64,000 bases of DNA from Oscillatoria princeps RMCB-10 (GTDB lineage Bacteria; Cyanobacteriota; Cyanobacteriia; Cyanobacteriales; Oscillatoriaceae), in NCBI GenBank assembly GCA_019359235.1, contig JAHHHT010000012.1, positions 131,648 through 195,647 on the forward strand, written 5' to 3'. Every line of letters starts with the position of its first letter. Within the stretch, counting starts at the first letter, position 1. The notes beneath the pieces were generated by a model that saw nothing but the letters and a program-made list of their open reading frames with translations, was not told where the DNA came from and made no database searches. The position numbers and the translations under genes are program-made. Positions 1 to 18,473 of the stretch are shown one piece after another.

Positions 1-2932
1 TATGCCCTCTGAGAGTTTGGAGTTCTGTCCCATCCAAACTCCAGAGTTTGACGGTTTTGTCCTCACTGACAGTGGCAATCATTTTACCGTCAGGGCTGAA
101 ACCCACTCCGCAGACCGCAGCTCCATGTCTTTCCAATCGATTGCGCTCTCTAATTTTATAGACAGTTTCCTGTATTAAACTATCAACTTTATTCTGGAGA
201 GCGGCTGTTTTCTCAAAGTTGTGAAACCCAGGCCGATCTATTATATTCAGTTGGGTCGAGGCTCTTAAACTTGGTATCAGCGCATCAAACTCTCGATTCG
301 ATGTCAAGAGCGCTTCTGAGGATGCACGGAGAGCTTCGATTTCCCTGATGGCGGAATTTTGCGACTGCCACCAAGCGACCCCAGCCAGAATGGAGGTGAG
401 CAGCAAACCGCCGACAAGCCCTGAGATAATAAGTTGCCACCGGCGCTTCTGTTTGTTTATCTCGCGGGAGCGAAGTTCCAAACTCAGCCCAATGAAACCT
501 CTCTCGCCATCGCTCAGTTCATCAAGGCGTTGCTTCTGCCAATATTCCGCATCTGCTAGGGGCTTTCTTCGCAACAGATCCCCTTCATCGCAGCCGCTAT
601 TCTCCCACTGGCGCACTGCGGCTCTCAGCTGCTCTTGCCACCGGCGAAAGTCACCGTCAGCTTCCATCCACTTGTGCAAACGCCCCCAACTTCTAATCAG
701 CGCCTCATGGACGATTTCCACTGTTTCAAAGCCGGCAGACTCGGTGCGGTCAGTCACCACTAAACGGGCGTCAGCCAAGCGCGTCACCAGATCCCAATTT
801 TCACTGCGCACCTCATCGCGAGTCGCCAACCGGCGAGTGGCTTCTGTCTCTTCTCCCAAACGCACCAGCTGCAGGAACACCCGCTGCGCCCGCTGTCTGT
901 CGGCTTCAGAAAGCTGGGCGTAAACCGCTTCGGCGTGGTTAGCGAGAGCTTCTTCTACGCCGCCAATTTCCTCGTAAGCTTCAAGAGTCAGCCACCCATC
1001 TTTTTGTTTTGACCACAGCTGAGTCAGGGCAAACTCCAGCAAGGGTAAATGTCCTGGATGCCCCCAGGTTGCTTCAGTGAGTTTATTGGTCAGCCCATCT
1101 TCCAGATTCACCTGCATTTGCGCCGCCGGCTTTTCTATTGCTGACTGCAATTCCTCGCGGTTCATTGGCCCGAGGTTGTGGACTGCCCCCTGCAAGGCAT
1201 CGCTAAAGGGGCGGTAAGAAAGGGCGTAGCCGTAAAAATCAGCCCGCAGAGTGAGGGCGAGAGTAAATGCCGGTGCTAATCTGACTGCAGTTAGCAATGC
1301 ATCCAAGAAAGGCTGGCGTTCTGACTCTGGATTTTGGGTGTAGAGTTCCTCAAACTGGTCGGCGATTAAGATTAGGCGAGTGCCCGGGTTTTGCCGCACG
1401 AGGCTTTCGATGATTTTGTATAAGGCTCGGGGATCTTGCTTCAGTGAGATGGCCAATTCCAGTTCAATTAACCGGCGGGCATTTTCACCGTCACCGCTTT
1501 CCCCCTGCTGCTGCAGGTGCTCCCAGCTAGGGGCGAGCGCCACCGCCAAGGCATCAAAAGGATTTTTCCCCGGACGAAAAGAGACAATCTGCCAGCGAAC
1601 AAGAGTGTCTTTTCGCAATTTGGGAACGGTGCCGGCAAACAGCACGCTAGACTTGCCACTCCCACTGGCACCGATGGCAGCCACCAGCGGCTTTGTTTTT
1701 ACCGCCGCCACCAAATCCTCGGCGAACTGCTCCCGCCCAAAGAAGAGGTGGGCGTCTTCTTCTCGGAAAGCAAATAAACCCCGATAGGGACAGGGGGGAA
1801 TCCCGCCCAACTGCAGCCAAGTTGCCGGTTCTACTGCTGGATTTTGGCAAATGACAGGCAGCCAAGAAGCGCCAGGGAAGTCATCTTCTAAACCTTGTAA
1901 CTTTCTTCGCGCTTGCTGCGCAGCGAGATATAAAGGAAGTCGCTTTTGTGCGAAGGCTTGCAGAAAATGCTTGAAAAATTCCTGCGCCACGCGATTCGGC
2001 ACCGGCTCCCGCATGACAATCACTGCGGGAAGGTTCAATTTCTCCAGAGCGAGAGCCAGTCCCAGCCCGTCGCAGGAGTTGAAAATCGCCAGCTTTAAAC
2101 CGTTTTCAATGGCTTGTGTGAGAGCTTCTTCTAACTGTCCGACGGTCAGGCTGTTGTTGGTTTTGTTTTCATTGATATAAAGTCTGCCGGTTTCGCCCTC
2201 GGTTTGGCTGTGACCGGCAAAAAAGAGGATGTCCCACCCCCGGTCGTTCCAAAGCTGGGTGTTGAGTTGCTGGCGCGAGGGCTTGACAAGAAATTCGACT
2301 TCTGCATCTGGCAAGTTTTTCAGAAACCGGCTCTCTGCCTCCAGATTGATGCCAGAGCTATTGCCGAGAACGGCCAAGATCCTGACTTTTTCGCGGGTGG
2401 CTTTTGGCTGTGAGGGTTGGGTGCGTTTGTACTCGGATCTGCTCAGAGCCATTTCTGCTTTGGGATAATCGCTAAAGAAATCCCAGCAATGCCAGGGGAA
2501 TCGCCGCAGCAATTCATCGCCGGTTTCGACAATGACCCGAATTTCTTCTGCTGTGTTGAGTTGCGCTCTCAGTTGCTGTTCAATATTGATAAAGCCTTTA
2601 GACTTGAGCCAAGCATTGAGGCTCTCTTCTAACTGTTGGCAGACCTCCTCGAAACCGAGCTGAGAGACGTTGGTTATTCCCCCTTCGTCGATTTCCAGGT
2701 CATCGTCATCTTCCTCGCGAGCCGGTGGGGAAAGCAGCTCTTTGCGAGCGCTGAGACTCATATAAACTAACTGCCAGTTCCTGTACAGTTCAGCCAGAAC
2801 CGGCGCTGGGGGCAAACTGCCGGTGAATTGCTGCGGCAGGGGGTGGCCCGCTTCTCGCAGCTGAGCGGTAACTCTGGGAAATCCGCTGTTTAAATCGCCG
2901 GCTCCCAGATTAATGACAACTGACTTGCTCAT
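1..2932 (-). CDS. CHAT-domain (caspase-like) peptidase fused to P-loop STAND-type NTPase, one predicted TM helix and WD40 repeats; C-terminal part runs off the window
   Basis: Minus-strand ATG is the complement of 2930-2932. Hand translation of the reverse complement is open to position 1. CHAT-like His at FFAGHSQTEGETG (complement of about 2190-2230) and Cys at LAIFNSCDGLG (about 2060-2090). Walker A GASGSGKSS is the complement of 1645-1680. Hydrophobic segment LIISGLVGGLLLTSILAGVAWW. WD40 unit VCGVGFSPDGKMIATVSEDKTVKLW is the complement of 1-110. Not in the ORF track because it is truncated by the window edge. Confidence 0.8.
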   Translation of the reverse strand, partial: MSKSVVINLGAGDLNSGFPRVTAQLREAGHPLPQQFTGSLPPAPVLAELYRNWQLVYMSLSARKELLSPPAREEDDDDLEIDEGGITNVSQLGFEEVCQQLEESLNAWLKSKGFINIEQQLRAQLNTAEEIRVIVETGDELLRRFPWHCWDFFSDYPKAEMALSRSEYKRTQPSQPKATREKVRILAVLGNSSGINLEAESRFLKNLPDAEVEFLVKPSRQQLNTQLWNDRGWDILFFAGHSQTEGETGRLYINENKTNNSLTVGQLEEALTQAIENGLKLAIFNSCDGLGLALALEKLNLPAVIVMREPVPNRVAQEFFKHFLQAFAQKRLPLYLAAQQARRKLQGLEDDFPGASWLPVICQNPAVEPATWLQLGGIPPCPYRGLFAFREEDAHLFFGREQFAEDLVAAVKTKPLVAAIGASGSGKSSVLFAGTVPKLRKDTLVRWQIVSFRPGKNPFDALAVALAPSWEHLQQQGESGDGENARRLIELELAISLKQDPRALYKIIESLVRQNPGTRLILIADQFEELYTQNPESERQPFLDALLTAVRLAPAFTLALTLRADFYGYALSYRPFSDALQGAVHNLGPMNREELQSAIEKPAAQMQVNLEDGLTNKLTEATWGHPGHLPLLEFALTQLWSKQKDGWLTLEAYEEIGGVEEALANHAEAVYAQLSEADRQRAQRVFLQLVRLGEETEATRRLATRDEVRSENWDLVTRLADARLVVTDRTESAGFETVEIVHEALIRSWGRLHKWMEADGDFRRWQEQLRAAVRQWENSGCDEGDLLRRKPLADAEYWQKQRLDELSDGERGFIGLSLELRSREINKQKRRWQLIISGLVGGLLLTSILAGVAWWQSQNSAIREIEALRASSEALLTSNREFDALIPSLRASTQLNIIDRPGFHNFEKTAALQNKVDSLIQETVYKIRERNRLERHGAAVCGVGFSPDGKMIATVSEDKTVKLWSLDGTELQTLRGH

Positions 2933-2933
2933 T

Positions 2934-4019
2934 TCAGAGTTCAAAATCTTCCTTAACGCTGACATCACTTAGACTGACTTCAAGACTGAAGCGGGTTACC
3001 GGTTTAGCTTTAAAGGATTTCAGCTGAATGTAGTTATCTTGACTTCGGGAAGTGACTTCCTGGAGAGTTTTCCCCCCTTTCGACAGCAAGGTCAATTTGA
3101 GATTGGCCGGCAAATACTTTTTCCCGCCCGCCGGATGCAACTGTGCCAAGACACCCAATTTATCCTCAGCCTCTTCTGTGACAGTCACCAGCAGCGCCAC
3201 GGTTTGACTGCCCAGTTGCATTCCCAGGTTAATGAGTTTACCTCGCTTCGCACCCGACTCAGCATTGCTGGATCTCAGAGCTAAATTGGCTTCTGGGCTT
3301 ATCAGTGCGTCAATCGCCTGCCAGCTTTGCTCAAAAACGCCCTGCAACCACTGGCTCAACTTGGTTCTGGTTTCTTCCAGGTATTCCTGTAAGTTTTCTG
3401 CAGCCTCTGTCACGGATGTCATGGCTTGACCCTCGGCTGCCGGGCAGAGAGGGATAGCAGCCGGTTCCAAGAAGCGACAGTAGAACAGCAGGTGATTTGG
3501 CTCCGCATCAAATTCTGATAGCGGCAGCCGGTAACAGCCATCCCGTGAGGGCTTTAAATTAGCTCTACTTAGATAATTAAGCAGCTGGTCGCAACGCTGA
3601 AAGCCTCTCACAAGAACTTGTTCCTGCTCGTCCAATACCTCAAGCAACACATAAAAATGAGCTGCCAAGTCCGGTCTGTCGATGGCATCTGCCGGCAGGC
3701 TCACCACTTCATCAAGCAGGTGTTCTGTCGCAAGCAGATAGAACTTAAATTTGCCAACCATGAGATGGCAAACAGCCTCACTGACCTCAGGATCTCGATT
3801 TAATATTTTATCCGGCATGCGGTCACTTAGCCATTCTTCAAAGCCAAGAATCGCCAGTGCGTTCAGATAGGTTTGCCACTGCTCGGCTTCTCCTGTCACC
3901 CGCTCGCTAATCTCTCTCGCCCGCTCGAAATGTTCTGGTTCAAGGTCTACGGTTTCAGGCAGCCACACCCTCAAATCCGTTGAATCTACCGGGAAACTCG
4001 CCATAACTTTACTCCTCAT
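2934..4019 (-). CDS. DUF1822-like protein (cyanobacterial unknown-function family), middle gene of the three-gene locus
   Basis: 361-aa ORF. Its stop (2934-2936) lies 1 nt from the CHAT gene start, and its start overlaps the upstream gene stop (ATGA at 4016-4019). The DUF1822 call is from memory of this gene neighbourhood and is not verified. Confidence 0.55.
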   Translation of the reverse strand: MRSKVMASFPVDSTDLRVWLPETVDLEPEHFERAREISERVTGEAEQWQTYLNALAILGFEEWLSDRMPDKILNRDPEVSEAVCHLMVGKFKFYLLATEHLLDEVVSLPADAIDRPDLAAHFYVLLEVLDEQEQVLVRGFQRCDQLLNYLSRANLKPSRDGCYRLPLSEFDAEPNHLLFYCRFLEPAAIPLCPAAEGQAMTSVTEAAENLQEYLEETRTKLSQWLQGVFEQSWQAIDALISPEANLALRSSNAESGAKRGKLINLGMQLGSQTVALLVTVTEEAEDKLGVLAQLHPAGGKKYLPANLKLTLLSKGGKTLQEVTSRSQDNYIQLKSFKAKPVTRFSLEVSLSDVSVKEDFEL

Positions 4020-5587
4020 GTTCTTTTTTCAAAATAAAGCCGAAGTTGCTGGGCGTAAAAGCTGTTGATCGACCGGCTCTTCACCGCCCGGATTTCTTCT
4101 GCAGCTTCTTGGAAGATTTCTCGATCCGCAAAAGCTTCGATTTGCTCCGCCAGGGTTTTCAGATAGTCCGGTTCAGGGGGAATCTTGGTCAGACCCATAC
4201 CTTGAGCCTTTTCTAACGTCCTGTCGAGAAATTGCTGCACAGTTCGCTCCCGCACCTTGTTGAGAAGGTCCCCCGGATTTAACACCCGCCTGGCTTGATC
4301 CCAACTTGTCATTCCCAACAGGGTAGCAATCTCCCTAAGAGACATGCCCTGACCGTAATAGAGTTGCAAACCAGGAAGGAAGTTTGCTGCTATAGTAGCA
4401 TACCTTTTGCTTTTTTGCAAGTGGGTGAGGCGAGAGACAATCTCTCGTTCTATTGCTTGGGCCAAAGCTAAATTGAGTTGTTCGTGCAAGAACTCCTGAA
4501 GTTCCCGCTGTTCGACATGTTCGACATCGAGTTTACTAAGGGAATCGTGAGGTAAATCCGGTCTGGGTGCGGAATCTCCCGTCTCTGGGTCGTATATTTC
4601 CAGAGGTTCCCTGTAGCTCCAGATGTCATACTGTCGCAGCTGGGTTGCTACCTGTTTTAGTTCTTTTAGCAACTCCACCGGCGTGCTGGTGGCGACGCCT
4701 CGTTCCTGCAATCCGGCTAGCATTTCTTTAAGCTGAGCGGCTGAAGGATCGGGACATCTCCTCGCTCCCTTTTTCTGCTGGCGTCTGTCCCTACGGTAGA
4801 CGGCGTGAAAGATTTCGGCGAGGTGGCGCTGGCGCACAGAGAGAAGTTCCAGCTGTTTGGGTCTGGCTCTATTCAGGAGCGCCCAGTCGCTCAAATGTTT
4901 AAAGCCAAAGTTCGATAAAAAATCTTTGATCTCTTGATTTTGTTTGGTTAGCAAGTAGGCCCAGTTGGCCAAGCTCATGCTGGATTTGGAGTCCTGCTTA
5001 AAGGTTCGCAAAATCTCAACGGTAAAGAATTTATAAGCCGCTGGCTTCGCTTCACCACTGTCATCCAGAATGAGTTGAGTTTTCCCCTCCCTGTCCAGGA
5101 GGATGAGACTTTGACCGTCGTCATTGAGGACAAAGGGCAGCAAATCCCGGTAGCTGAAGGATTTTCCCCCATTGAAGAAACGGGCGATGTTTTTGCAGGC
5201 TATGAGGATGGGGTAAGACACTCTGCACCGCAGGCTAAGTCCAGCTAGAGCGCGAGTTGTGGCGTCAGCAGAAGACTTCTTGGCGTGAAAATAGGAGAGC
5301 AGGGCGGCTTGAATCTCCTTATCCCGATGATGAGTGTGCTGGTTCGAGAGCGCCTGTTTTGCCTCTCTTTGCAGAAATTGTTTCTGATAGAACTCCTGTG
5401 CCGGTGGGACTGCACAGTATTCGTATCCATCCCTTTCACTGGCCAGACTGATTCGGCAGATGTTCCCGTACCTGGATGGCGCTTCCATAACCACTGCGAT
5501 GACCTCACGTTGGCTGAGCTGCTCGTCTACTTGTATCAAAGAAATAGGTGCGCGTGTTTTGAGCTTATGCAGTTCCGGAGCCGCCAC
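4016..5587 (-). CDS. sigma-70 region-4-like HTH protein (sigma-factor-like regulator), first gene of the sigma-like/DUF1822/CHAT locus
   Basis: 523-aa ORF. The C-terminal segment LYYGQGMSLREIATLLGMTSWDQARRV resembles the sigma-70 region 4 / ECF HTH. The N-terminal 400 aa are unlike canonical sigma regions 2-3. Confidence 0.6.
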   Translation of the reverse strand: MAAPELHKLKTRAPISLIQVDEQLSQREVIAVVMEAPSRYGNICRISLASERDGYEYCAVPPAQEFYQKQFLQREAKQALSNQHTHHRDKEIQAALLSYFHAKKSSADATTRALAGLSLRCRVSYPILIACKNIARFFNGGKSFSYRDLLPFVLNDDGQSLILLDREGKTQLILDDSGEAKPAAYKFFTVEILRTFKQDSKSSMSLANWAYLLTKQNQEIKDFLSNFGFKHLSDWALLNRARPKQLELLSVRQRHLAEIFHAVYRRDRRQQKKGARRCPDPSAAQLKEMLAGLQERGVATSTPVELLKELKQVATQLRQYDIWSYREPLEIYDPETGDSAPRPDLPHDSLSKLDVEHVEQRELQEFLHEQLNLALAQAIEREIVSRLTHLQKSKRYATIAANFLPGLQLYYGQGMSLREIATLLGMTSWDQARRVLNPGDLLNKVRERTVQQFLDRTLEKAQGMGLTKIPPEPDYLKTLAEQIEAFADREIFQEAAEEIRAVKSRSINSFYAQQLRLYFEKRT

Positions 5588-6164
5588 CCCAGTGCAGCGG
5601 GCAGAAATCCAAGACCGGCCTGCCAGTGTGGCCCGCCGAAGCGAAACGAATCAGCGACAAACAGCTGTGCAAATTAGGTTTAACGGTAATTGCTAGCTGG
5701 GAAATTGTCAAGGGGGGTTGGTTCAGTATCCTGGTGAGTTGCTCAAACGCGCCGGTTTTAGCTCTGTTGCCCAGATAGGTCGTGGTTCAGGGAAGTGCTG
5801 GCCCCTTTATGGCGTCAGACCAAGTTCCCCAGAGATGACAGCCCGAATAGTAGTGGAGCCGTTCAAGGATGTGGCCGCCCCACCAGCGAGGAAGCCCTGT
5901 GGTCTAGCGCGCCGGGACATCTTGGACATGGGACGGCGCAAGTTCTGCCCCCCACACTTTGCCGGCGGGCACTGGGGCCAGCCGGCGAAAATCCTTGCGG
6001 TGTAAAGCTTTTGGGCTGCTTGTCACCCCAAAAGCCGGCGATAGTTCTCCCATTTGCATCTCCAAACTGCATAAGTTGATTTCAGTTCCCCCTATTAGGA
6101 CGCAGGAGGAGGACAAACAAGCTTAACCTCCTGTTCAACAAAACCTCGCCATGCCGGAGACTGT

Positions 6165-6902
6165 ATGAAAAAACTGCTTTCTTCAATCCTGATTGTAGGC
6201 AGCCTGACCGCTAGCAGCCAGCTCTTGGCCTACCAACCAGCCTCAGCCCGCGCTGGCAACGAATTAGACAGCACTATTACGGCACTCCAATTGCTAGTTG
6301 ATGCTCCATGTTTGAAGTTCAATAAGCTGCCTATTAGCCAGGGAGGTTTCCGAGATATGCTGGAAGCCCTTGGAAAGCGTGAAACAGGACTTCCACCAGG
6401 AGATCCCAATCAGTACAAAGTAGAAAACTCGCTGGGTTTCATCGGAAAATACCAATTTGGAGAAGCTCTGCTGATTGACCTGGGCTACTACAAAGCCGAT
6501 GTTTACTATAATGGAGGCCAAAATGGCGTCGATAAGAATTACTGGCGGGGTGCGTGGACAGGAAAAAATGGGGCCTATAGCAAACAAGATTTTCTGAATA
6601 ACCCTCAAATTCAAGAAACAGCGATCCGTGAGGCTTTCCGCCTGAATGTTGAGATTATAAAACGGTCTCTTAGCCAGCAAGGAAAGTCCCTAAATAATTA
6701 TTTGGGCAGCACCAAGACATTGCAGGGCCAACAAATCCAAATTACTCTGTCAGGTATTTTAGCCGGCGCACACCTGCGCGGCCCTGATGGGGTGGCCAAT
6801 TTTCTGCTCAAAGACGAAGTATCTTCCGATGAGTTTGGCACTTCTATTCTCCAGTATATGTCTGAATTTAGCGGCTTCAATGTGACTGAAGCCGATTTTT
6901 AA
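6165..6902 (+). CDS. secreted hypothetical protein (N-terminal signal peptide)
   Basis: 245-aa ORF. MKKLLSSILIVGSLTASSQLLA is a signal-like N-terminus. No family recognised. Confidence 0.6.
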   Translation: MKKLLSSILIVGSLTASSQLLAYQPASARAGNELDSTITALQLLVDAPCLKFNKLPISQGGFRDMLEALGKRETGLPPGDPNQYKVENSLGFIGKYQFGEALLIDLGYYKADVYYNGGQNGVDKNYWRGAWTGKNGAYSKQDFLNNPQIQETAIREAFRLNVEIIKRSLSQQGKSLNNYLGSTKTLQGQQIQITLSGILAGAHLRGPDGVANFLLKDEVSSDEFGTSILQYMSEFSGFNVTEADF

Positions 6903-6949
6903 AAGTCCCGATTATAATCGATGGCCTGTACCGATTCAGCCTGGTATAG

Positions 6950-6980
6950 AAGGGGCAGTAATGCCCCTTTTCCCTTTTCC
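6950..6980 (+). terminator. rho-independent terminator-like hairpin downstream of 6165..6902
   Basis: GGGGCAGTAATGCCCC stem-loop followed by a TTTTCCCTTTTCC run. Confidence 0.5.
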
Positions 6981-7480
6981 GTTAAGGTTAAAGTAACAGG
7001 ATTTACGCAAGTCTCAATAGCGACCGCTGACAGTGTGACACTTAGAGCAGGAGGCAGTCCTTAATACGCCCGGTCAAAAAAATGGCCGCATTCGGTTTTT
7101 GCTGGATGGCACGCCAGTTCTGGATGAAGGTAAATTGACTTTCCGAACCGCTGACACCCTGAAAATCGACGGGATATTCTTCTCAACTTTTTTTGGGGGG
7201 GACGATCCCTCTTGGGCTACACCGGCACATGGTGGACTTCGCCCAGTTCTCCGTCCTAGAGGTGAGCTGAAGGCAAGTCGCTGCACTCGGTTTTTCACGC
7301 TCCGCACCAGAAGTGTTCTAAAATTAGAAGAGCCATGTTTTTAACTGCCTGACCTAGCTGAGGCGTACCGGGCAAAGCTGCCGGCTTTTTCCCCTCCCCC
7401 AGCGATGCGAAGCTGGGTGGCGTGCCGGCTGCCGGCAAAACTGATAAACTCAAAACACAGAGTTTAGGGGAATAGTTGCC

Positions 7481-8044
7481 ATGCTACCTCAGGGAATCTT
7501 TGGCGAATTGCCGGCGCTCGAAACTGACCGGCTGCTGCTGCGAAAAATGACGATGGAGGATGCGGCAGACATGTTTGAATATGCCAGCAATCCAGATGTC
7601 GCAAAATTCACCACTTGGAGGGCGCACAAGTCTGTAGAAGATAGCGAACTATTCCTGAGGGCGGTGATGGATGAGTACAGGAAACATGAGCCGTCTTCTT
7701 GGGGGATAGAGGAAAAATTTGAGCGCAAGCTGATCGGCACCTGTGGGTTTGCCAATTGGAGTCCTTCTGACTTTCGTGGGGAAATTGGCTACGCCCTCTC
7801 CAGAAAATACTGGGGGAAAGGATATATGACTGAGGCAGTCCGGGCGGCGATTGACTTTGGCTTTCGCACTTTGCAGCTGAATCGCATTGAAGCCAGATGC
7901 GAGATTAAAAATATTGCTTCCGCCCGCGTCATGGAAAAAGCCGGCATGAGATTTGAAGGCATCTTGCGACAGCACGCCTTTTACAAGGGTGCCTTTCGCG
8001 ATTTGAAAATGTACTCCATTCTCCGAAAGGAATGGGTGGAGTAA
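7481..8044 (+). CDS. GNAT family N-acetyltransferase (RimJ/RimL-like)
   Basis: 187 aa. Motifs IGTCGF...GEIGYAL...WGKGYMTEA and RIEARCEIKNIASARVMEKAGM are typical GNAT/RimL. Confidence 0.85.
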   Translation: MLPQGIFGELPALETDRLLLRKMTMEDAADMFEYASNPDVAKFTTWRAHKSVEDSELFLRAVMDEYRKHEPSSWGIEEKFERKLIGTCGFANWSPSDFRGEIGYALSRKYWGKGYMTEAVRAAIDFGFRTLQLNRIEARCEIKNIASARVMEKAGMRFEGILRQHAFYKGAFRDLKMYSILRKEWVE

Positions 8045-8056
8045 AGAAAAAGTAGA

Positions 8057-8090
8057 AACCGGGTAACTTCTGCGAAACCCGGTTTCTGGC
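8057..8090. repeat. GAAACCGGGT...ACCCGGTTTC inverted-repeat element between convergent genes (likely bidirectional terminator)
   Basis: agaaaccgggt-aacttctgcga-aacccggtttct. Sits between the GNAT stop (8044) and the fasciclin stop (8112). Member of a dispersed palindromic family seen at six or more loci. Confidence 0.55.
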
Positions 8091-8111
8091 ACCCATTCAG
8101 TATCGATTGCC

Positions 8112-8705
8112 CTACATATTGGGCGGCAGAATCACCTTATCGATGACGTGGATGACGCCGTTGCTGGCTTCGATGTCCGCCGAAGTCACATTTGCCTGAT
8201 TCACCATCACCTTGCCGGCATCAACTTTAACCATGACGGAGCTGCCCTCAACCGTCGCCACGTCTCCCGACTGCAAGCTGCCAGACTTGACCGCACCGGG
8301 AACCACATGGTAGGTCAAAATCTTGACCAGTTTGTCTTTGTTCTCCGGCTTTAACAGCTCTTCCACAGTGCCCTTTGGCAAAGCGGCAAACGCTTCATCC
8401 GTGGGCGCAAAAACAGTGAACGGGCCTTTTCCTGCCAGGGTGTCCACCAAACCGGCAGCTTGCAAAGCCGCTGTCAGGGTCTTGAACGAGTCATTCTTGC
8501 TCGCGATATCCACAATGCTGGGGCTGGTCGCGGCTGCTGCAGGACCGGCGACCTCAACCTCGACGGCGGAGGTGGGGGACGCCGGCTTGCTGGCGCTGTT
8601 ACAGGACTTCGCCGAAACTGGCATGCTGAGCAAGAAACTGGCACCGGCAACTGCCACAAGGCCAGCTAGCTTTCCGCCCCAGGTTTTAACGTTCTTTACC
8701 TTCAT
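8112..8705 (-). CDS. fasciclin (FAS1) domain secreted protein
   Basis: Signal peptide. [17 protein letters not shown]...[11 protein letters not shown]...[13 protein letters not shown] are hallmark FAS1 motifs. Confidence 0.85.
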
Positions 8706-9055
8706 AGCTTCTGGTCTTCCTTGGCCCGAATTTTACAAATTGTAAACTTATGTTTCATTGTATATCATTTCCTGCCGTTCCGCACTGCCAACCGTGCCGG
8801 GAAAATTTTTCGCTTGCCTGAGTAGGAATACTTAGGCTGCCGGAGGGAACCCTTGTGCGGTTCGGATTCGGAGGAAGTGGGGGCTGGCGCATGCGGCGGC
8901 GGCGTGCGACCGCCGGCTGCCCCCTGAGGTGTTAAGCATTTAATTGTGCAGTTTCGACTGCTGTGGGGATGGGTTTAAGGTCAGAATGTTATAAAATTGA
9001 CTGTTTTTACTAAATAGGTTAAAGAGCAAGTTAAATGTGCATATCTCACCCCTGT

Positions 9056-9141
9056 CCCCTATACCCTAACCCCTAACCCCTAACCCCCAATCCCCAATCC
9101 CCAATCCCCAATCCCCAATCCCCAATCCCCAATCCCCAAAC
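9056..9141. repeat. STRR-like tandem heptamer array (CCCTAAC x3 then CCCCAAT x8)
   Basis: Direct tandem heptamers read in sequence. CCCCAAT matches the cyanobacterial STRR1 consensus CCCCA(A/G)T. Confidence 0.8.
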
Positions 9142-9294
9142 GCTGCTACAGCGTCAGGTTCTTCCTTATGGCAGATGGAACCCTAGAGGCAAATTGATAG
9201 GGTAGCAATGGGAACCAATACACTTCACATTGAAAGTGCGAGCGCCCCATTTATGTTTTAAGGGCAAAGTTATCAAAAGCAAGGAGAGAAAGTC

Positions 9295-9567
9295 ATGTGG
9301 GACATTATTGCTTGGATTGTCTTAGGTCTGATTGCTGGCGCAATTGCTAAAGCCATCTATCCCGGGAGCCAAGGTGGCGGTATGGTTGCCACCATCATTC
9401 TGGGTATTTTGGGCGCTGTGGTTGGGGGCTGGGTGGGCAGAATGCTGATAGGGACAAGCGCCGGCGCTTCCTACGGGGCGCTGACGCTGCCCAGCATTGC
9501 TTTGGCGGTGCTGGGTGCGATGATTGTCCTTTTCTTGTGGGGTTTGTTTACTCGCCGCGCCGCCTGA
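9295..9567 (+). CDS. GlsB/YeaQ/YmgE family (transglycosylase-associated) small membrane protein
   Basis: 90 aa, Gly-rich, two to three TM segments, motif GxxGAxxG. Good SD AAGGAGAG upstream. Confidence 0.8.
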   Translation: MWDIIAWIVLGLIAGAIAKAIYPGSQGGGMVATIILGILGAVVGGWVGRMLIGTSAGASYGALTLPSIALAVLGAMIVLFLWGLFTRRAA

Positions 9568-9662
9568 TAGCGACACTGTCCGTTCTGCGGGTTCGGATTT
9601 TTCACTCTCCCCCAGGCAGAGCGCTGGGGGAGCTTTCCGCTTGAGAATATGGAGGTAGTGCA

Positions 9663-9866
9663 ATGCCCTGGAGCGAAAACGACTATCCAGCCGCGCTCGA
9701 GAACCTCACCGAAGAGGTGAGGGACAAGGCCATTGAGATAGCAAATGCTTTACTGGAAGAAAAGGATTGCGATCGAGGTAGGGCGATTCCGATCGCTATC
9801 GCTCAAGCTGAGGAATGGGCCAGCCGGCGCGGCAAGCCGGTCAAACAGCGAGACTATACCGATTGA
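9663..9866 (+). CDS. small conserved hypothetical protein
   Basis: 67-aa ORF with a helical, charged, protein-like composition. No family assigned. Confidence 0.4.
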   Translation: MPWSENDYPAALENLTEEVRDKAIEIANALLEEKDCDRGRAIPIAIAQAEEWASRRGKPVKQRDYTD

Positions 9867-9926
9867 TGCTATTTTCTAATAAGTCAGCGTTCTGCGGCAA
9901 CCTCAACAAGCTTAAGGAAATAGAAA

Positions 9927-10718
9927 ATGCTGGAGCTATATCAATCTGAACTGTCCCCGCACAGCGAGAAAGTGCGGCTGATGCTGGACTACAAAGGGCT
10001 GGCGTACCGCAAAATTGAAGTGACACCGGGCGTGGGACAGCTAGAAGTCTACCGGCTCTCCGGTCAGCCCCAGGTGCCGGTGCTCAAGGACGGTAATGTA
10101 GTTGTAGCCGATTCTACAGAAATCGCCAAATATCTAGACCGGCAGTATCCAGACCGCCCCCTGATTCCCGCCGGTGACAAACAGCGGGGGCTGTGCCTGC
10201 TCATGGAAGAATGGGCGGACGAGTCGATTGGGGCGAAAAGTCAGACGCTGCTGTTTTCCGCCCTCAGCTCTGACGGGAGCTTCCGCAGCGCCCTCTTGCC
10301 ACCGGCAACCCCGGATTTCCTCAGAACCCTCGTGGAAGCCGTTCCGGGGGATCTGCTCAAGGCGCTCGGCACCGGCATCGGCGCGGGCTCTGACGCCGTG
10401 AGCGCCGCTATGGAAGCCATCAAGCAAGACTTGGAAGCCCTCTGCTTGCTGCTGCAAGACAGCCCCTATTTGGTGGGCTCCCAGCCGACTTTAGCAGATT
10501 TTGCCGTAGCTGGGCTGTCGATGTTCCTCAAGTTCCCAGAGGGACAGTATCTGGATATTCCAGAAAAGCTCAAAGGCAAAGGCGTGCCCGGAATTGCTGA
10601 CAATTCCCTCTACGCACCGTTTTTCTCCTGGCGAGATCGCCTTTATGACCAATATCGCCAACCCCTGATGCCCACCGGCACCACCGGCTCTGTGCCAACT
10701 TCGATTCAAATAGAATAG
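9927..10718 (+). CDS. glutathione S-transferase family protein
   Basis: N-terminal thioredoxin-like GST fold: LYQSELSPHSEKVRLML...VPVLKDGNVVVADSTEIAKYLD. Confidence 0.75.
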   Translation: MLELYQSELSPHSEKVRLMLDYKGLAYRKIEVTPGVGQLEVYRLSGQPQVPVLKDGNVVVADSTEIAKYLDRQYPDRPLIPAGDKQRGLCLLMEEWADESIGAKSQTLLFSALSSDGSFRSALLPPATPDFLRTLVEAVPGDLLKALGTGIGAGSDAVSAAMEAIKQDLEALCLLLQDSPYLVGSQPTLADFAVAGLSMFLKFPEGQYLDIPEKLKGKGVPGIADNSLYAPFFSWRDRLYDQYRQPLMPTGTTGSVPTSIQIE

Positions 10719-11153
10719 TGGGATTGGGGTGCGTGACGCCGGGGAAGCAACCTATTTCTGCGGGGAGATCGGGTGAGGCGCGCGCACCCTACCAGGGAGA
10801 ATAACAGGAGTGCGGTGCCAACCGAACCACGCGAACACACCTTATTGATGGGGTGCTTTGGGTGATGCAGAAGGCACCCAACCTCCGCAAGAGATCCCAC
10901 CGGCTGCAAAAAATGCCGGTGGGTTTTGAATTTTCAACCGCCTCCCCTGAAGCACCCCACGCCCTGACAAAGGGCGTTTCCCCTCGCTCCCCCGCTCCGT
11001 CAGGGAGCCAGCGAGGGGAGGAGCTGCCTCCCATTCTACCACAAGCCGGTTCAACCCCTGCTTCCTGTTTCCAGAGGGAAAAAACCTTACCTCTGCTAGC
11101 TAGAAAATCAAAATTGATCGTAAGATCAGCCAGAAGGTTGAGAGATTAGAGCG

Positions 11154-12884
11154 ATGAATCTAGACAAACCACTGGGCTCGGTTATTCAAGGTTCTCTCAG
11201 TGAAGGGGTGGAAGTCCGGCTGCATCCTGACATCTCCGTCGAAGAAATGCGGGTGGGCAAGTTTTTGGTGGTGCAAGGGGTGCGAGCGCAGTTTTTTTGC
11301 ATGCTCACCGATGTCATCCTGGGAACCTCTAGCCCCCGCATTCTCGCCGATCCCCCCCTCGCCAGCGACACTTTGCTGCAGGAAATTCTGGCGGGAAGCA
11401 GCACCTACGGCACCCTGCAGCTCGCCCTCATGCTGATGTTCACCCCACCAAACCCGGAAAAAGCCCTCCGCAACTCCGCCCTTCAGTCAAAAGCGAGCAA
11501 AGCAGCGAAATCGGGGCTGGCGTCGTTTGAGGCGCAAACCAGCAGTGACATCGAATTGCTGCCGGTGAAGACAATTCCCAGCCACTTCTCGCAGGTTTAT
11601 GAAGCCACCGAGGAAGACTTTCGCTGCGTTTTCGGTTGGGAAGACGATCCCTACCGGCGCAACTTCGCGATCGGAAAACCCCTTGACATGGACGTGCCGG
11701 TGTGTGTCGATCTCGACCGGTTCGTCGAGCGCAGTAACGGAGTTTTCGGCAAATCCGGCACCGGCAAGTCTTTTCTCACCCGCCTGCTGCTGTCTGGCAT
11801 TATCCGCAAGCAAGCGGCGGTGAATCTTATTTTTGACATGCACTCCGAGTATGGCTGGGAAGCCGTTTCGGAAGGCAAGCAGTGCAGCACTGTCAAAGGT
11901 TTGCGCCAGCTTTTTCCCGGTCAGGTTGAAATTTACACCCTCGACCCCATTTCTACAAAAAGTCGCGGCGTGCGCGACGCCCAAGAACTGTATCTGAGCT
12001 ACGACCAAATTGAGGTCGAAGATATCGCCCTGGTGCAGCGCGAGCTAAATCTTTCCGAAGTCGCCCTGGAAAATGCTTTGATTCTCCGCAACGAGCTTGG
12101 CAACTCCTGGATTAGAGAGCTGCTGCTGATGAGCAATGAGGAGATTCAGGAATTCTGCGAGACGAAGAAAGGAAACAAGGCTTCTATTGGGGCGCTGCAG
12201 CGCAAGCTCGTGCGTCTGGAGGATCTGAAATACATGCGCGAGAAGGGGTCTAAAAATTACATCAGCCAGATTTTGAACTCCCTGGATGCCGGCAAGCATG
12301 TTGTGATTGAGTTTGGCTCCCACGCGGATATGCTATCATACATGATGGTGACTAATATGATATCCCGCCGGATTCACGCTAGCTATGTGCGCAAGTCCGA
12401 GAAGTTTTTGCGCACGAAAAATCCCAACGAGCGCCCCCGACAGCTGGTGATTACTATCGAAGAAGCCCACCGCTTTCTCGACCCCACTATCGTCCGCTCC
12501 ACGATTTTTGGCACCATCGCTCGCGAGATGCGGAAATATTTTGTTACCCTTTTGATAGTCGATCAGCGCCCTTCGGGCATTGATAATGAGATTATGTCTC
12601 AGATTGGCACCCGCATCACCGCTTTGCTCAACGATCAAAAAGACATTGACGCCATTTTCACCGGCGTCTCCGGAGCCGCCGGTTTGCGCTCTGTTTTGGC
12701 CAAGCTGGATTCCAAGCAACAAGCACTGGTTCTCGGACACGCCGTACCGATGCCGGTGGTGGTGCAAACTCGCCCCTACGACGAAACCTTCTACAGGGAA
12801 ATTGGCGAGATGGATTGGGAAAATATGCCAACCGAACTTGTGATGGAAGAAAGTGAATCCGCTATGGCGGATCTGGGTTTCTAG
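11154..12884 (+). CDS. HerA/FtsK-like P-loop ATPase (DUF87-type), no partner nuclease nearby
   Basis: 576 aa. Walker A GKSGTGKSF. Walker B LVITIEEAHRF. Motif LIVDQRPSGID. N-terminal barrel-like domain. Confidence 0.7.
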   Translation: MNLDKPLGSVIQGSLSEGVEVRLHPDISVEEMRVGKFLVVQGVRAQFFCMLTDVILGTSSPRILADPPLASDTLLQEILAGSSTYGTLQLALMLMFTPPNPEKALRNSALQSKASKAAKSGLASFEAQTSSDIELLPVKTIPSHFSQVYEATEEDFRCVFGWEDDPYRRNFAIGKPLDMDVPVCVDLDRFVERSNGVFGKSGTGKSFLTRLLLSGIIRKQAAVNLIFDMHSEYGWEAVSEGKQCSTVKGLRQLFPGQVEIYTLDPISTKSRGVRDAQELYLSYDQIEVEDIALVQRELNLSEVALENALILRNELGNSWIRELLLMSNEEIQEFCETKKGNKASIGALQRKLVRLEDLKYMREKGSKNYISQILNSLDAGKHVVIEFGSHADMLSYMMVTNMISRRIHASYVRKSEKFLRTKNPNERPRQLVITIEEAHRFLDPTIVRSTIFGTIAREMRKYFVTLLIVDQRPSGIDNEIMSQIGTRITALLNDQKDIDAIFTGVSGAAGLRSVLAKLDSKQQALVLGHAVPMPVVVQTRPYDETFYREIGEMDWENMPTELVMEESESAMADLGF

Positions 12885-12900
12885 TAGGGGCGTGGGGTGT

Positions 12901-12995
12901 GGGCATCACGCAAAAGGGCATCACGCAAAAGGGCGATTGGGCATGGGTTGAATTATCAACTTTTCTTCTAAACCCTAACCCCTAAACCCTAAACT
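12901..12995. repeat. short tandem repeats: 17-mer GGGCATCACGCAAAAGG x2, then CCCTAA(A/C) heptamers
   Basis: gggcatcacgcaaaagggcatcacgcaaaagggcg at 12901-12935. aaaccctaacccctaaaccctaaac at 12961-12990. Confidence 0.6.
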
Positions 12996-13259
12996 CTGGC
13001 GTCCCACATTCGTGGGATGATAATGTATGTAGGGGCAGGCACAGGGGCGATCGGGGTCAACTTAAGAGCCGGGCGATGGAAAGAGATGCTGTTGGCGAAT
13101 CCGTGAGGGGTTAGGGAAGGGTTGGGGGCGGGTTTTTCGGCGTTGGGGCTGTGTGGGCACAGGTTGCCGGTGAGCCCCGCCCCTACATCCCTTTCCTGAT
13201 TTCCTCGTTCCGGGCTTCAGCTGGGAATGAGACAGAGTATTTCAACCGCCCAGTTCAAC

Positions 13260-14006
13260 TTAAGTTGACACTAATGGCACAGGGGCACTTTGGGAGCATC
13301 CCATTTTTGTAAGTGCAGCAGGCCGTATCCCTGTACGAATAAAGGTGCGCACCGAGAGACCTTCCCACAGCTGACCTGCATAGAAGGGCGAACTGTAGCT
13401 AAACGACGTGATATAGGGGCTATAAGCGGTCAGCTTACGCCCCGTATCGATCGCGGCTGCGGCTGACATATCTGCCAGAGCCAAATTGAGGTCGGGACCA
13501 TAGGTGAGCATCGCCACATGTTCCGTTTGGTATGTCGGGTCGTCGCGGCGCAGCTCCTGCTCATAATTATTGAGCGGCGGAGCGTAGATATATTTTGTCT
13601 GGTAGGGATTGAAGCTGGTCAGCACAGCAGTAAAGCCACATGCCTCAGCCAGCGCACGCAGACATGCAAAGTTATGCCTCAATTCTTCGACAGCCCCTTG
13701 AATACTTGGGTGAATCGTCGTGCGAATCTCAATGCCTTTGGGGTCAAAATGGAGCGGCGCACCAGTTTCAGAGAAGCGTTCGATACCCTCAATATACCAA
13801 CGTTTCTTGCGAATTACTGCATCTCCAACATAGAGCTGCGGGTAATCGCTGGGGTAAAGCGGCAATTGTGCAATAATGTGGTCGAGATCGGCAAAGGTAG
13901 CCGTCGTCCAATCAACAAATAGACCCGCACTATCGAGAAAAGCAACTTCGTGTTCAATTCCAAAAGTGAACATCATCAAATTCCGCTCGAAGTAACATCC
14001 AGGCAA
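13260..14006 (-). CDS. hypothetical protein, possibly GCS2-family carboxylate-amine ligase-like (C-terminally short)
   Basis: The N-terminus FTFGIEHEVAFLD resembles the YbdK/GCS2 motif FTLGIELE. At 248 aa it is shorter than typical and the C-terminal tail looks non-protein-like, so a frameshift or pseudogene is possible. Confidence 0.45.
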   Translation of the reverse strand: MPGCYFERNLMMFTFGIEHEVAFLDSAGLFVDWTTATFADLDHIIAQLPLYPSDYPQLYVGDAVIRKKRWYIEGIERFSETGAPLHFDPKGIEIRTTIHPSIQGAVEELRHNFACLRALAEACGFTAVLTSFNPYQTKYIYAPPLNNYEQELRRDDPTYQTEHVAMLTYGPDLNLALADMSAAAAIDTGRKLTAYSPYITSFSYSSPFYAGQLWEGLSVRTFIRTGIRPAALTKMGCSQSAPVPLVST

Positions 14007-14050
14007 GCGAATATGCGCTCTAGCGATTCTCTATAATTTGGATAAATATC

Positions 14051-14174
14051 AGAAACCAGGTTGGTTTGATAACCCGGGTTTCTGGGGGCTGACTTATTGT
14101 CCCATTCTTTTATACCGGCTCTCATATTAGTGAGGTACTTAGAAACCCGGTTTCTTTAAGAAACCGGGTTTCCC
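14051..14174. repeat. cluster of three GAAACC(C)GGGTTTC palindromic elements
   Basis: agaaaccaggttggtttgataacccgggtttct at 14051-14083. agaaacccggtttctttaagaaaccgggtttccc at 14141-14174. Confidence 0.6.
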
Positions 14175-16255: not shown

Positions 16256-16324
16256 TCGGGCGGTCAGTTTTTGAACTAGCCGCTTGGCCTTGCGCTCCTC
16301 ACCGAGCGCCGGAAAAAAATAGGG

Positions 16325-16358
16325 CTGGGAGCAGCAACTGCTCCCAGCTCGATTTTTT
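16325..16358 (+). terminator. rho-independent terminator of the sigma-factor gene
   Basis: CTGGGAGCAG-CAA-CTGCTCCCAG stem-loop followed by CTCGATTTTTTG. Confidence 0.7.
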
Positions 16359-16634
16359 GTTAATATTTGTAAACGAATTCGGCAATCAAAGGCGACGGGC
16401 GTGAAGGCAAAGCTGAAAACAGGGCGCAAATCCGCCCGGATTCTCAACTCATACCAATTTTGGATTTTGGATGCAAGGATTTTGGATTGGACAAGGCGGC
16501 AGTAAAGCCTTTCCAGCCCCAGGGGAAAATACTATCGATCCCAACTTGGGATCAGAACGTCTCACTGGAAAACCCAGAGGGAAAAAACCAGGGTGCACAA
16601 CCGGTTTGTCCGCTTTAGCTCACCGTGGCACAAA

Positions 16635-17162: not shown

Positions 17163-17167
17163 CCCCC

Positions 17168-18431: not shown

Positions 18432-18473
18432 GCGGAGAAGGGAGAAAGCAGAAAGTAGGGGCACCCACAAGGG

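Follow-up and report, generated by a model that had tools for sequence, protein, structure and literature searches.

A conserved sigma-like/DUF1822 gene pair and its CHAT-nSTAND1-WD40 neighbour in cyanobacteria: a candidate protease-gated transcription switch

Three tightly packed minus-strand genes at the start of the window (the whole 64-kb stretch of DNA that was analysed) encode a sigma-like protein, a DUF1822 protein and a CHAT protease with an NTPase module, a transmembrane (TM) helix and WD40 repeats. The trio is an ortholog of a system that had been predicted before, and no new kind of system. Its obligatory unit is the sigma-like/DUF1822 pair, while the protease is frequent but replaceable. 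The most likely mechanism, to which we give about an even chance, is a protease-gated transcription switch, in which sensor-driven CHAT cleavage would free the sigma-like protein. What the present analysis adds is the invariant pair, a fuller sigma likeness of gene 1, a non-TPR fold for DUF1822 and a conserved TM helix that suggests a WD40 sensor outside the cytoplasm.

The three ORFs (5587/5488–4016, 4019/4004–2934 and 2932–<1, minus strand) follow each other with no real intergenic space. All of them were found where the first-pass annotation had placed them, together with the 1-nt gap: gene 3 starts at 2932, 1 nt past the gene 2 stop. The ATGA overlap of genes 1 and 2 that it had pointed out is present at 4016–4019, but gene 2 probably does not begin at this ATG. 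Because 31 gene 2 orthologs begin at the residue equivalent to M6 and GAGGAG lies 8–13 nt upstream of ATG 4004, overlapping the gene 1 stop, the junction is probably an 11-nt spacer bearing a ribosome-binding site, with the start at ATG 4004 (356 aa). The start of gene 1 is probably ATG 5488 (490 aa), because its orthologs (470–490 aa) begin at the residue equivalent to M34. Judged by sequence, genes 1 and 2 are tightly coupled whichever gene 2 start is taken. The geometry supports co-transcription and translational coupling of the trio. It had been read earlier as 'co-translation'; the tight geometry stands, but that term is too strong, and translational coupling fits.

A 577-nt intergenic region (5588..6164) separates gene 1 from a divergently transcribed gene for a secreted protein and is presumed to be the promoter region of the operon. 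No Rfam family was found in it, and a promoter scan of the region gave a single weak sigma70-like match on the opposite strand, with matches not above shuffles. Overall, the promoter and terminator scans gave nothing above chance level.

The pairing of genes 1 and 2 was invariant in the neighbourhood survey. In every one of the 79 evaluable loci, which come from different species, the gene 1 ortholog was directly followed by a DUF1822 gene, at a distance of ≤100 nt in 69 of them. The order was also kept in plasmid paralogs that are only 25–30% identical (N. punctiforme pNPUN01 and Tolypothrix PCC 7712). At least 176 species of cyanobacteria have the sigma-like gene, and the 80 examined loci carried the pair.

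Of the 63 loci with a flank of at least 3 kb, 32 had a caspase-superfamily protease gene as the next one downstream, in the same orientation (20 EACC2-CHAT, 11 TPR-CHAT and 1 C14). With flanks of at least 8 kb, such a protease was found somewhere in the flanks in 38 of 50 loci, and there was none nearby in 12, about a quarter. The type, distance and orientation of the neighbouring protease varied among loci. Separately, TPR-CHAT proteins were found in the slot after DUF1822 at the plasmid paralogs too. Homologs of the N-terminal+CHAT module carried C-terminal nSTAND1-TM-WD40, CHASE2, AAA_35 or nothing. AAA_35, found here at the C-terminus of CHAT proteins, was fused to the sigma-like protein in family member P0374. 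The earlier claim of a trio conserved in cyanobacteria is thus right in that the three genes co-occur in many other genomes, but it is the pair that is constant, and the protease can be replaced.

Gene 1 (4016..5587, minus strand; maximal ORF of 523 aa from GTG 5587) encodes a divergent sigma-70-family-like protein. The first-pass annotation had recognised only a helix-turn-helix (HTH) in a 523-aa protein. At the level of sequence this holds: the sigma4-type HTH (aa 395–445, 4253..4405, minus strand) is the sole statistically supported part, and its Pfam Sigma70_r4 match is weak (E 0.014, 15.3 bits, under the cut-off of 24.1). Searched against the PDB, the family profile found sigma4-type HTHs at E 3.4e-5 and SigF at E 0.02, and the top sequence matches were HTHs of DeoR/SorC/LsrR-type regulators. 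Sigma70_r2 of Pfam did not match the gene 1 protein or any of 78 family members; on a consensus with the insertion deleted it reached E 0.016 and 15.5 bits (cut-off 24). The protein is below every Pfam sigma cut-off, and hhalign against real group-2 sigma factors gave a probability of <2%.

The structural model goes further than the HTH. In fold searches it matched whole sigma factors with modest scores. Weak sigma2, sigma3 and sigma4 signals were collinear in the correct order, and the overall fold, as modelled, is sigma2, then sigma3, then sigma4. The sigma2-like region (aa 109–270, 4778..5263, minus strand) contains a beta-hairpin insertion of ~30 aa. Before the HTH lies an acidic, conserved linker of low model confidence (aa 322–357, 4517..4624, minus strand), with pLDDT <50 at aa 322–330 and 345–357 and the invariant residues W323, S324, R326, G337, R342 and D344. 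It is a candidate sigma3.2-like linker or cleavage site. The best local hhalign match to a group-2 sigma factor (region 3.1/3.2, E 0.03) ends just upstream of it. The AF2 models were made from alignments of 28 and 32 sequences, with mean pLDDT of 76 and 67.

Gene 2 (2934..4019, minus strand; ORF of 361 aa from ATG 4019) was matched by PF08852 (DUF1822) over the full length of the profile (E 5e-73, 246.7 bits, positions 1–370 of 370), which bears out the earlier assignment. Its orthologs are 55–69% identical. The model divides the protein into an N-terminal domain (aa 22–185, 3465..3956), a linker (aa 193–266, 3222..3443) and a C-terminal Ig-like beta-sandwich (aa 267–360, 2940..3221), all on the minus strand. 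The predicted fold of the N-terminal domain is of the PD-(D/E)XK type, with a restriction-endonuclease-like alpha-beta-beta-beta-alpha-beta core. The catalytic D...(D/E)-x-K signature is absent from this domain, where the motif reads E127-V-L. D103/E104 and E127/E131 are conserved, but K never occurs at the third position after E127, where L, D, S or N is found. The only conserved basic residue is K92, on a neighbouring strand. The linker (..KLSQWLQGVF..PEANLA..GAKRGKLINLG) has pLDDT <50 throughout, and L221, W224, L225, W233, A247, K261 and L262 are invariant among orthologs; the W-L pair is retained even in deep paralogs. It may serve for partner binding or as the site of cleavage. DUF1822 has been labelled a TPR protein (PMC8195603), which we reject: the model is alpha/beta plus all-beta, not all-alpha repeat hairpins. 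Sequence and fold searches showed no resemblance of DUF1822 to any known anti-sigma factor and no anti-sigma domain, and PDB sequence and fold searches showed no similarity to Csx30.

Gene 3 (1..2932, minus strand) runs beyond the window at its 3' end. The first 2.9 kb are one open frame of 977 codons up to the window edge, so that a frameshift, which would have spoken against a single gene, is absent. Full-length orthologs have ~1,500–1,600 aa and about 12–14 WD40 units, and their WD40 part holds repeats for two propellers. The protein begins with a conserved domain without a Pfam match (aa 1–120, 2573..2932, minus strand), which has a median identity of 55% and always precedes CHAT in 49 homologs with differing C-termini. 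By position, context and published description, we infer that it corresponds to the 'EACC2' of Kaur et al. 2021.

The remaining domains of gene 3 agree with what the first-pass annotation had read from the letters. The CHAT (caspase-like) peptidase domain (aa 121–349, 1886..2572, minus strand) was matched by PF12770 above the cut-off (E 1e-13, 51.8 bits vs 24). Its His and Cys lie in FFAGHSQ at aa 237 and FNSCDG at aa 284 (His241 codon at 2210–2212 and Cys287 codon at 2072–2074, minus strand), and both were 100% conserved in the 49 homologs. The STAND NTPase (nSTAND1, PF20703; aa 382–783, 584..1789, minus strand) was matched at E 5e-120 (402 bits, profile positions 1–378 of 379), with Walker A GASGSGKS at aa 421 (1649–1672) and a Walker B-like LILIADQFEE at ~aa 519–529. 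A single predicted TM helix (aa 832–855, 368..439, minus strand; Kyte-Doolittle maximum 2.24) is preceded by the basic run KQKRR. An equivalent helix with an upstream K/R run was found in 11 of 12 full-length nSTAND1-WD40 orthologs, and the positive-inside rule applied to this conserved helix suggests that the WD40 sensor is outside the cytoplasm. The first WD40 repeat (aa 932–977, 1..139, minus strand) matched PF00400 at E 6.4e-8. The close relative PCC 10802 has intact genes 1 and 2 but a gene 3 that is disrupted beyond aa 561; the pair can therefore persist without the gene 3 protease.

Neighbourhoods of this kind, "EACC2-caspase-variable C-terminus + ECF sigma + DUF1822", were predicted computationally by Kaur, Iyer, Burroughs and Aravind (eLife 2021, PMC8195603), who proposed that a stimulus activates the peptidase and leads to a sigma-driven transcriptional response. 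The first-pass annotation had called the trio one with no assigned function; this paper already describes it, by computation. Common to both are a constant N-terminal domain (here probably EACC2) ahead of a caspase/CHAT domain, a C-terminus of high variability that includes the STAND NTPase and CHASE2 which the paper names, sigma-like and DUF1822 genes as neighbours in the window and in other genomes, and the proposed logic. The regulated module seen in the first-pass annotation (WD40 sensor, NTPase switch, protease effector and DNA-binding partner) agrees with this paper and with studied protease-sigma systems. The differences are that in the paper DUF1822 is classed as a TPR protein, whereas our model has a nuclease-like fold and an Ig-like sandwich; that its sigma factor is of the ECF type, whereas gene 1 has ~480 aa, sigma3-like signs and large insertions; and that our survey centres on the sigma-like/DUF1822 pair, with TPR-CHAT and C14 as alternatives to EACC2-CHAT. 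A literature search found this one comparative paper and no experimental work on these genes.

What is observed is the gene order with its conservation, the domains, the intact motifs of protease and NTPase, the fold assignments and the TM helix. For the switch, the contacts between the proteins, RNA polymerase binding, the cleavage step with its site, the membrane topology and a role in defence, cell death or stress/developmental signalling are all postulated. Gene 1 would be a very divergent sigma-70-family protein with sigma2-sigma3-sigma4 order, made in fixed proportion to DUF1822 through translational coupling. DUF1822, as an anti-sigma factor or adaptor, would keep it in an inactive complex. 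Gene 3 would be the input device, with CHAT and nSTAND1 in the cytoplasm and the WD40 propellers probably across the membrane. Ligand binding by the WD40 sensor would trigger NTP-dependent oligomerisation of the STAND module, and oligomerisation would activate the CHAT domains by proximity. CHAT would then cut DUF1822, or else the sigma-like protein itself, within a flexible and conserved segment, and the freed sigma-like protein would redirect RNA polymerase. CHASE2-, AAA_35- or TPR-linked caspase-like sensor proteases of the same genomes may feed the same sigma/DUF1822 hub.

In favour of the switch are the constant pairing, distant plasmid paralogs included, and the association with caspase-superfamily proteases across loci. 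The invariant H241/C287 together with Walker A and B point to a competent protease, and the conserved low-confidence stretches of both partners offer candidate cleavage or binding segments. The conserved TM helix of the WD40 orthologs and the CHASE2 variants as extracytoplasmic sensors are consistent with transmembrane input, and protease-released sigma systems provide a precedent by analogy. The P0374 fusion is a hint of a Rosetta-stone link. Against the switch, DUF1822 is unlike known anti-sigma factors or Csx30, and its modelled nuclease-like fold suggests that it may have another activity. About a quarter of the long-flank loci have no protease, the PCC 10802 pair is intact next to a broken gene 3, and the AF2 models rest on shallow alignments.

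Four other readings were weighed. Gene 1 could encode a large DNA-binding regulator of the HTH type, working on its own and not as a sigma subunit, in a module still controlled by the protease. The HTH as the only part with statistical sequence support, the best sequence matches to HTHs of DeoR/SorC/LsrR-type regulators, the low hhalign probability and the modest fold scores all favour this; we rate it as rather unlikely. Processing of a pro-sigma factor, for which pro-sigmaK and pro-sigmaE are the model, would have CHAT cut the sigma-like protein in its N-terminal extension or in the 322–357 linker, with DUF1822 as scaffold or adaptor and not as inhibitor. A cut in a sigma3.2-like linker is, however, expected to inactivate a sigma factor and not to activate it, and the conserved DUF1822 linker is an equally good candidate substrate; we rate this route as improbable.

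The trio could also be a cell-death or abortive-infection module, with the DUF1822 N-domain as a latent DNase effector unleashed by a CHAT cut in the linker and the sigma-like HTH protein as its inhibitor, antitoxin or transcriptional regulator. DUF1822 lacks a Lys at the (D/E)xK position, though, and PADLOC-DB 2.0 gave no significant defence-system match for any of the three proteins (best E-values 0.013–0.014). The surroundings of the locus in the window are ordinary chromosomal genes, the pair is conserved at 55–70% identity across orders, unusually high for a conflict system, and an antitoxin role leaves the sigma-like fold of gene 1 unexplained. We consider this unlikely. Finally, the CHAT-nSTAND1-WD40 gene might be independent of the pair and lie beside it only because both belong to a genomic island with many caspase-like genes. 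The 12 long-flank loci without a nearby protease, the variable type, distance and orientation of the protease and the PCC 10802 locus fit such independence. On the other side, the CHAT association is kept across orthologs and the distant paralogs, plasmids included, the spacing in the window is 1 nt, and 32 of 63 is by estimate far above chance for a few dozen CHAT genes per 6–9 Mb genome; we rate independence as very improbable.

The protease-gated switch can be set beside several known systems. [quoted passage not shown] Like the type III-E CRISPR Craspase (Cas7-11, TPR-CHAT/Csx29, Csx30, Csx31, CASP-sigma/RpoE), the trio shows genetic linkage of a CHAT protease with a sigma factor, here a putative one, and with a non-enzymatic partner, and TPR-CHAT occupies the slot after DUF1822 in 11 surveyed loci. 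Unlike Craspase, the locus has no Cas genes or CRISPR-repeat families nearby: no CRISPR-repeat Rfam family was found across the whole window and none of the ten ORFs (≥150 aa) that were scanned from 6165 to 19778 showed a Cas domain. Activation here would come from a STAND/WD40 or CHASE2 sensor and not from target RNA, DUF1822 does not resemble Csx30, and the sigma-like protein has diverged much further than RpoE. CalpL-CalpT-CalpS (type III-B Lon-SAVED protease, anti-sigma, sigma) and SAVED-CHAT/PCaspase/PCc-sigma share a signal-activated oligomerising protease that cuts an anti-sigma or sigma factor with presumed transcription as output; they differ in cyclic-oligoadenylate input, other protease and sensor domains, ordinary ECF-like sigma factors and experimental testing.

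Two further groups offer partial parallels. In classical ECF sigma/transmembrane anti-sigma systems such as RseA-sigmaE, extracytoplasmic sensing leads to proteolysis and release of a co-transcribed sigma factor. The proposed switch would share this logic, and also the translational coupling of sigma and partner genes, but in the trio it is the protease and not the sigma partner that carries the TM helix, and the protease is caspase-like and NTPase-gated, not site-1/site-2. Bacterial STAND/NLR-like sensors (Avs, bNACHT) and the protease-NTPase-repeat gasdermin activators combine an effector, a STAND NTPase and a repeat sensor and oligomerise on ligand binding. The tripartite layout is the same and oligomerisation is expected in both; here, by contrast, PADLOC found no match, the presumed output is transcription and not direct killing, and the orthologs show strong conservation, not rapid diversification.

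A broader reading, which we put forward tentatively as possible, is that the pair is an unrecognised sigma/partner hub on which interchangeable caspase-like sensor proteases converge, largely in filamentous and colonial cyanobacteria. It would be a chromosomal, vertically inherited caspase-to-transcription pathway and a free-living counterpart of Craspase-Csx30-RpoE, possibly even the evolutionary source of the Craspase axis. In it, a strongly diverged sigma factor of full length would be under the control of a partner in which a foldable linker joins a nuclease-like to an Ig-like domain, and we know of no anti-sigma factor with this architecture. WD40 behind a TM helix and CHASE2 would sense signals outside the cytoplasm. 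A possible use is in multicellular stress or developmental decisions, not phage defence.

Release of sigma factors by proteases is a recent finding from type III CRISPR systems (Craspase, CalpL), and the trio looks like a CRISPR-independent chromosomal version. If the switch is real, it would add a subfamily to the sigma factors and a new type to their partners, DUF1822 being a domain of unknown function mislabelled as TPR, and would show how caspase-like proteases, abundant in multicellular cyanobacteria, connect to gene expression. It would also be a tractable system for work on bacterial caspase-like sensors in immunity, cell death or development; in N. punctiforme, NPUN_RS34160-34170 is a plasmid paralog.

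The first-pass annotation described three minus-strand ORFs at the start of the window, and all three were present. Gene 1, encoding the sigma-like protein, is open from GTG 5587 to TGA 4016–4018, gene 2 (DUF1822) from ATG 4019 to TGA 2934–2936, and gene 3 (the CHAT protease) from ATG 2932 to the window edge. Gene 3 is incomplete here, as the window ends inside it; full-length orthologs have ~1,500–1,600 residues. The first 2.9 kb were checked for a frameshift and form one open frame. For the copy of gene 3 in this window, a frameshift or pseudogene status was ruled out, as its 977 codons stay open.

The true start of gene 1 is likely ATG 5488, because orthologs are 470–490 aa long and their alignment begins at the equivalent of M34. 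For gene 2, 31 orthologs start at the equivalent of M6, and a GAGGAG motif, overlapping the gene 1 stop codon, lies upstream of the corresponding ATG 4004. The ATGA overlap between genes 1 and 2, previously read as a coupling junction, exists in the sequence, but the functional junction is probably not there. Whichever gene 2 start holds, the three genes appear packed as an operon with predicted translational coupling. A pattern scan for promoters and terminators was uninformative, with matches no more frequent than in shuffled sequences. No Rfam family was matched in the whole window, which argues against a riboswitch or leader upstream and against CRISPR repeats. Divergent from gene 1, after a 577-nt intergenic gap with no Rfam family, lies a gene for a 245-aa protein (6165–6902, plus strand) with a hydrophobic signal-like N-terminus and no Pfam match.

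The reading of gene 3 as a CHAT peptidase fused to a STAND NTPase, a TM helix and WD40 repeats was borne out. Pfam matches were found for CHAT (aa 121–349, E 1e-13, above the cut-off), nSTAND1 (aa 382–783, E 5e-120) and a first WD40 repeat (aa 932–965, E 6.4e-8). The NTPase has a Walker A motif at aa 421 (GASGSGKS), and its LILIADQFEE resembles a Walker B motif. The His of FFAGHSQ and the Cys of FNSCDG, noted earlier as conserved, are the predicted catalytic residues His241 and Cys287 and did not vary across 49 homologs that share the N-terminal+CHAT module. The first 120 residues have no Pfam match, yet they are conserved and precede CHAT in every one of these homologs (n=49). An NCBIfam scan produced noise apart from a HetF-like match to the CHAT core, itself weak. 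One strongly hydrophobic helix (aa 832–855) follows a KQKRR run, and of 12 full-length nSTAND1-WD40 orthologs, 11 have both features. When the positive-inside rule is applied to the helix and the basic run, CHAT and NTPase would be cytoplasmic and the WD40 propellers would lie across the membrane.

The assignment of gene 2 as DUF1822-like was confirmed by a full-length Pfam match (E 5e-73). Its AF2 model had a mean pLDDT of 67, with block values mostly of 62–92 in both folded domains, and ruled out a TPR protein. The N-terminal domain (aa 22–185) has a PD-(D/E)XK / restriction-endonuclease-like fold, and aa 267–360 form an Ig-like beta-sandwich. D103, E104, E127 and E131 in the N-terminal domain are invariant even in paralogs of 29–31% identity, and the canonical (D/E)xK Lys is missing. 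The domain could be a nuclease fold that lacks activity and serves in binding; alternatively, it could be an enzyme of an atypical kind. The linker (aa 193–266) had very low model confidence, yet holds some of the family's best conserved positions (KLSQWL, PEANLA, AKRGKLINLG). A PDB sequence-profile search with DUF1822 returned nothing meaningful.

In gene 1, sequence searches detected a sigma4-type HTH alone. The annotated sigma-70 region-4-like HTH holds insofar as a diverse family profile found sigma4-type HTHs in the PDB (E 3.4e-5; SigF, E 0.02), but the Sigma70_r4 score itself was under the cut-off. The AF2 model (mean pLDDT 76) was compared with the PDB by Foldseek, and each of the top 15 matches was the full-length chain of a sigmaA or sigmaS in an RNA polymerase holoenzyme (380–480 aligned columns, E 0.02–0.4). 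When insertions were removed from a consensus for the N-terminal half, Sigma70_r2 was the sole match among 24,736 Pfam models (E 0.016), and hhalign of the family against group-2 sigma factors matched region 3.1/3.2 best (E 0.03). These weak sigma2 and sigma3 signals are in the expected order. None of the model, r2 and 3.1/3.2 matches is significant alone; jointly, they point to a strongly diverged sigma-70-family protein. We consider it probable that gene 1 comprises sigma2, sigma3-like and sigma4 domains, with a beta-hairpin of ~30 aa inserted in sigma2 and, at aa 322–357, a flexible linker of acidic character. A PDB search with the close-ortholog alignment gave a spurious RbfA match alone. 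An ECF-type label is not supported by these data. An approximate E. coli RpoE query across 80 loci found no genuine ECF sigma, and its weak top matches were mostly gene 1 orthologs, which is no more than a hint. The window also encodes an ordinary sigma factor of group 2 (RpoD/SigA family; 15251–16255, plus strand), which has regions 1.2, 2, 3 and 4 and is 100% identical to a protein of Oscillatoria princeps RMCB-10. When the gene 1 family was aligned to it by hhalign, as a single sequence and as a 16-sequence profile, the probability was <2%, and the local 3.1/3.2 alignment was the one suggestive outcome; the sigma alignment had little diversity (Neff 1.7), which makes this a weak test.

The gene 1 family comprises 653 clusters at 90% identity, all labelled hypothetical and none with Pfam domains; an exhaustive profile search gave 568 clusters at 50% identity. 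Orthologs of 55–70% identity occur in Nostocales, Oscillatoriales, Pleurocapsales, Chroococcidiopsidales and Leptolyngbya-like lineages. Relatives were encoded by 176 species in a data set with one genome per species. The best 80 were all cyanobacterial, the closest among them being from an uncultured Oscillatoria MAG and Oscillatoria sp. PCC 10802.

Neighbourhoods were counted in these best 80 loci of the 176 species. The trio had been presented as conserved in cyanobacteria, which holds for the first two genes: DUF1822 followed gene 1 directly on the same strand in 79 of 79 evaluable loci (≤100 nt in 69). The protease is variable. Where the downstream sequence reached at least 3 kb (63 loci), a caspase-superfamily protease directly followed DUF1822 in 32 (20 EACC2-like+CHAT, 11 TPR-CHAT and one Peptidase_C14 with a separate nSTAND1-WD40 gene behind it). 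Where it reached at least 8 kb (50 loci), 38 had at least one such protease in the flanks. The C-terminus of the EACC2-like+CHAT module was nSTAND1-TM-WD40, CHASE2, AAA_35 or no added domain, and Scytonema-type loci carried three proteases beside one sigma-like/DUF1822 pair. As DUF1822 is constant and the protease less so, the pair appears to be the stable core and the proteases act as putative exchangeable inputs. Plasmid paralogs of 25–30% identity kept the same gene order. Chance adjacency was rejected, as the association is kept across orthologs and deep paralogs.

Individual loci showed further arrangements. In N. punctiforme pNPUN01 the order is hypothetical – DUF1822 – TPR-CHAT – IS4 – CHASE2 – DUF928, and a Tolypothrix PCC 7712 plasmid is identical in arrangement. 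In the plasmid paralogs (L081:15445–18602 and L082:16742–19395), a separate CHASE2 protein comes after sigma-like – DUF1822 – TPR-CHAT. This protein (with DUF928 in N. punctiforme) may be a further conserved component. Oscillatoria sp. PCC 10802 (L002:12656–17241, NZ_KB235948.1) is 97% identical in nucleotides to the window over genes 1 and 2. Its gene 3 match stops at aa 561, followed by ~1.6 kb of unrelated stop-rich sequence and a separate WD40 ORF; judged from this sequence, the protease gene is disrupted or rearranged and the sigma-like and DUF1822 genes are intact. Two neighbouring sigma-like copies were found at both L079:9971–19292 and L080:5371–13107. In the former (Calothrix sp. PCC 7716), two sigma-like/DUF1822 units face each other with one CHAT-WD40 gene between them, and one DUF1822 copy is a 61-aa remnant. 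In Calothrix sp. NIES-4105 (L072:12689–19268), a Peptidase_C14 caspase gene follows DUF1822, and then a separate nSTAND1-WD40 gene; the parts list resembles gene 3 of the window but is split in two genes, with another caspase-family domain.

In the representative search, a protein was found (P0374, 951 aa) in which an AAA_35 NTPase at the N-terminus is naturally fused to a full-length sigma-like protein, and at locus L042 AAA_35 is fused behind the EACC2-like+CHAT module. The presence of AAA_35 on both kinds of protein ties the sigma-like protein to a sensor module.

The trio is a published computational prediction and not new. Kaur, Iyer, Burroughs and Aravind (eLife 2021, PMC8195603) described proteins in which EACC2, an alpha+beta domain that is constant at the N-terminus, leads into a caspase domain; the C-terminus behind it varies strongly, with CHASE2 and STAND NTPase among its forms. 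They reported such proteins in neighbourhoods with an ECF sigma and DUF1822, which they labelled a TPR protein, and proposed that a stimulus activates the peptidase, leading to a sigma-mediated transcriptional response. Literature searches on the trio's domains and their combinations found no experimental study of it. The window locus is a further case of this predicted, uncharacterised type of system; what remains of value is the refinement of start codons, folds and neighbourhoods, and a mechanism open to direct testing.

The best-supported reading, to which we give about an even chance, is a sigma switch under protease control. In it, the sigma-like protein would be in a complex with DUF1822. 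The membrane-anchored CHAT-nSTAND1-WD40 protein, or other sensor proteases elsewhere, would sense a signal, the STAND module would oligomerise, and the CHAT domain would cleave a flexible conserved segment and set the sigma-like protein free. Every contact, the cleavage and the output are our inference. This mechanism matches the EACC2-caspase proposal, and its logic is that of analogues studied by experiment, TPR-CHAT/Csx30/CASP-sigma, CalpL/CalpT/CalpS and PCaspase/PCc-sigma (as summarised in bioRxiv 10.1101/2023.06.23.546230). The earlier notion of a sensor, NTPase switch and protease with a DNA-binding partner is supported as far as sequence analysis can go and agrees with PMC8195603.

Four rival explanations were weighed. 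Gene 1 could encode an HTH regulator instead of a sigma factor, as the one part detectable by sequence searches might suggest; this is unlikely. Somewhat less probable still is that DUF1822 is a latent nuclease effector, a reading that starts from the nuclease-like fold and has the missing Lys against it. Processing of the sigma-like protein itself, in pro-sigma style, is given the same low probability. That the protease acts independently of the sigma-like/DUF1822 pair would fit its variable presence, is at odds with an association kept across orthologs and deep paralogs, and seems very improbable.

The architecture is typical of conflict systems. A PADLOC scan of all three proteins gave nothing significant; together with high conservation and an ordinary chromosomal context (GNAT, fasciclin, GST, HerA-like, group-2 sigma, cobalamin and molybdopterin genes), this hints at an "institutionalised" signalling role. 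An ORF with no Pfam match (13260–14006, minus strand) lies near the gene for the HerA-like ATPase, which has HAS-barrel and DUF87 domains (11154–12884, plus strand).
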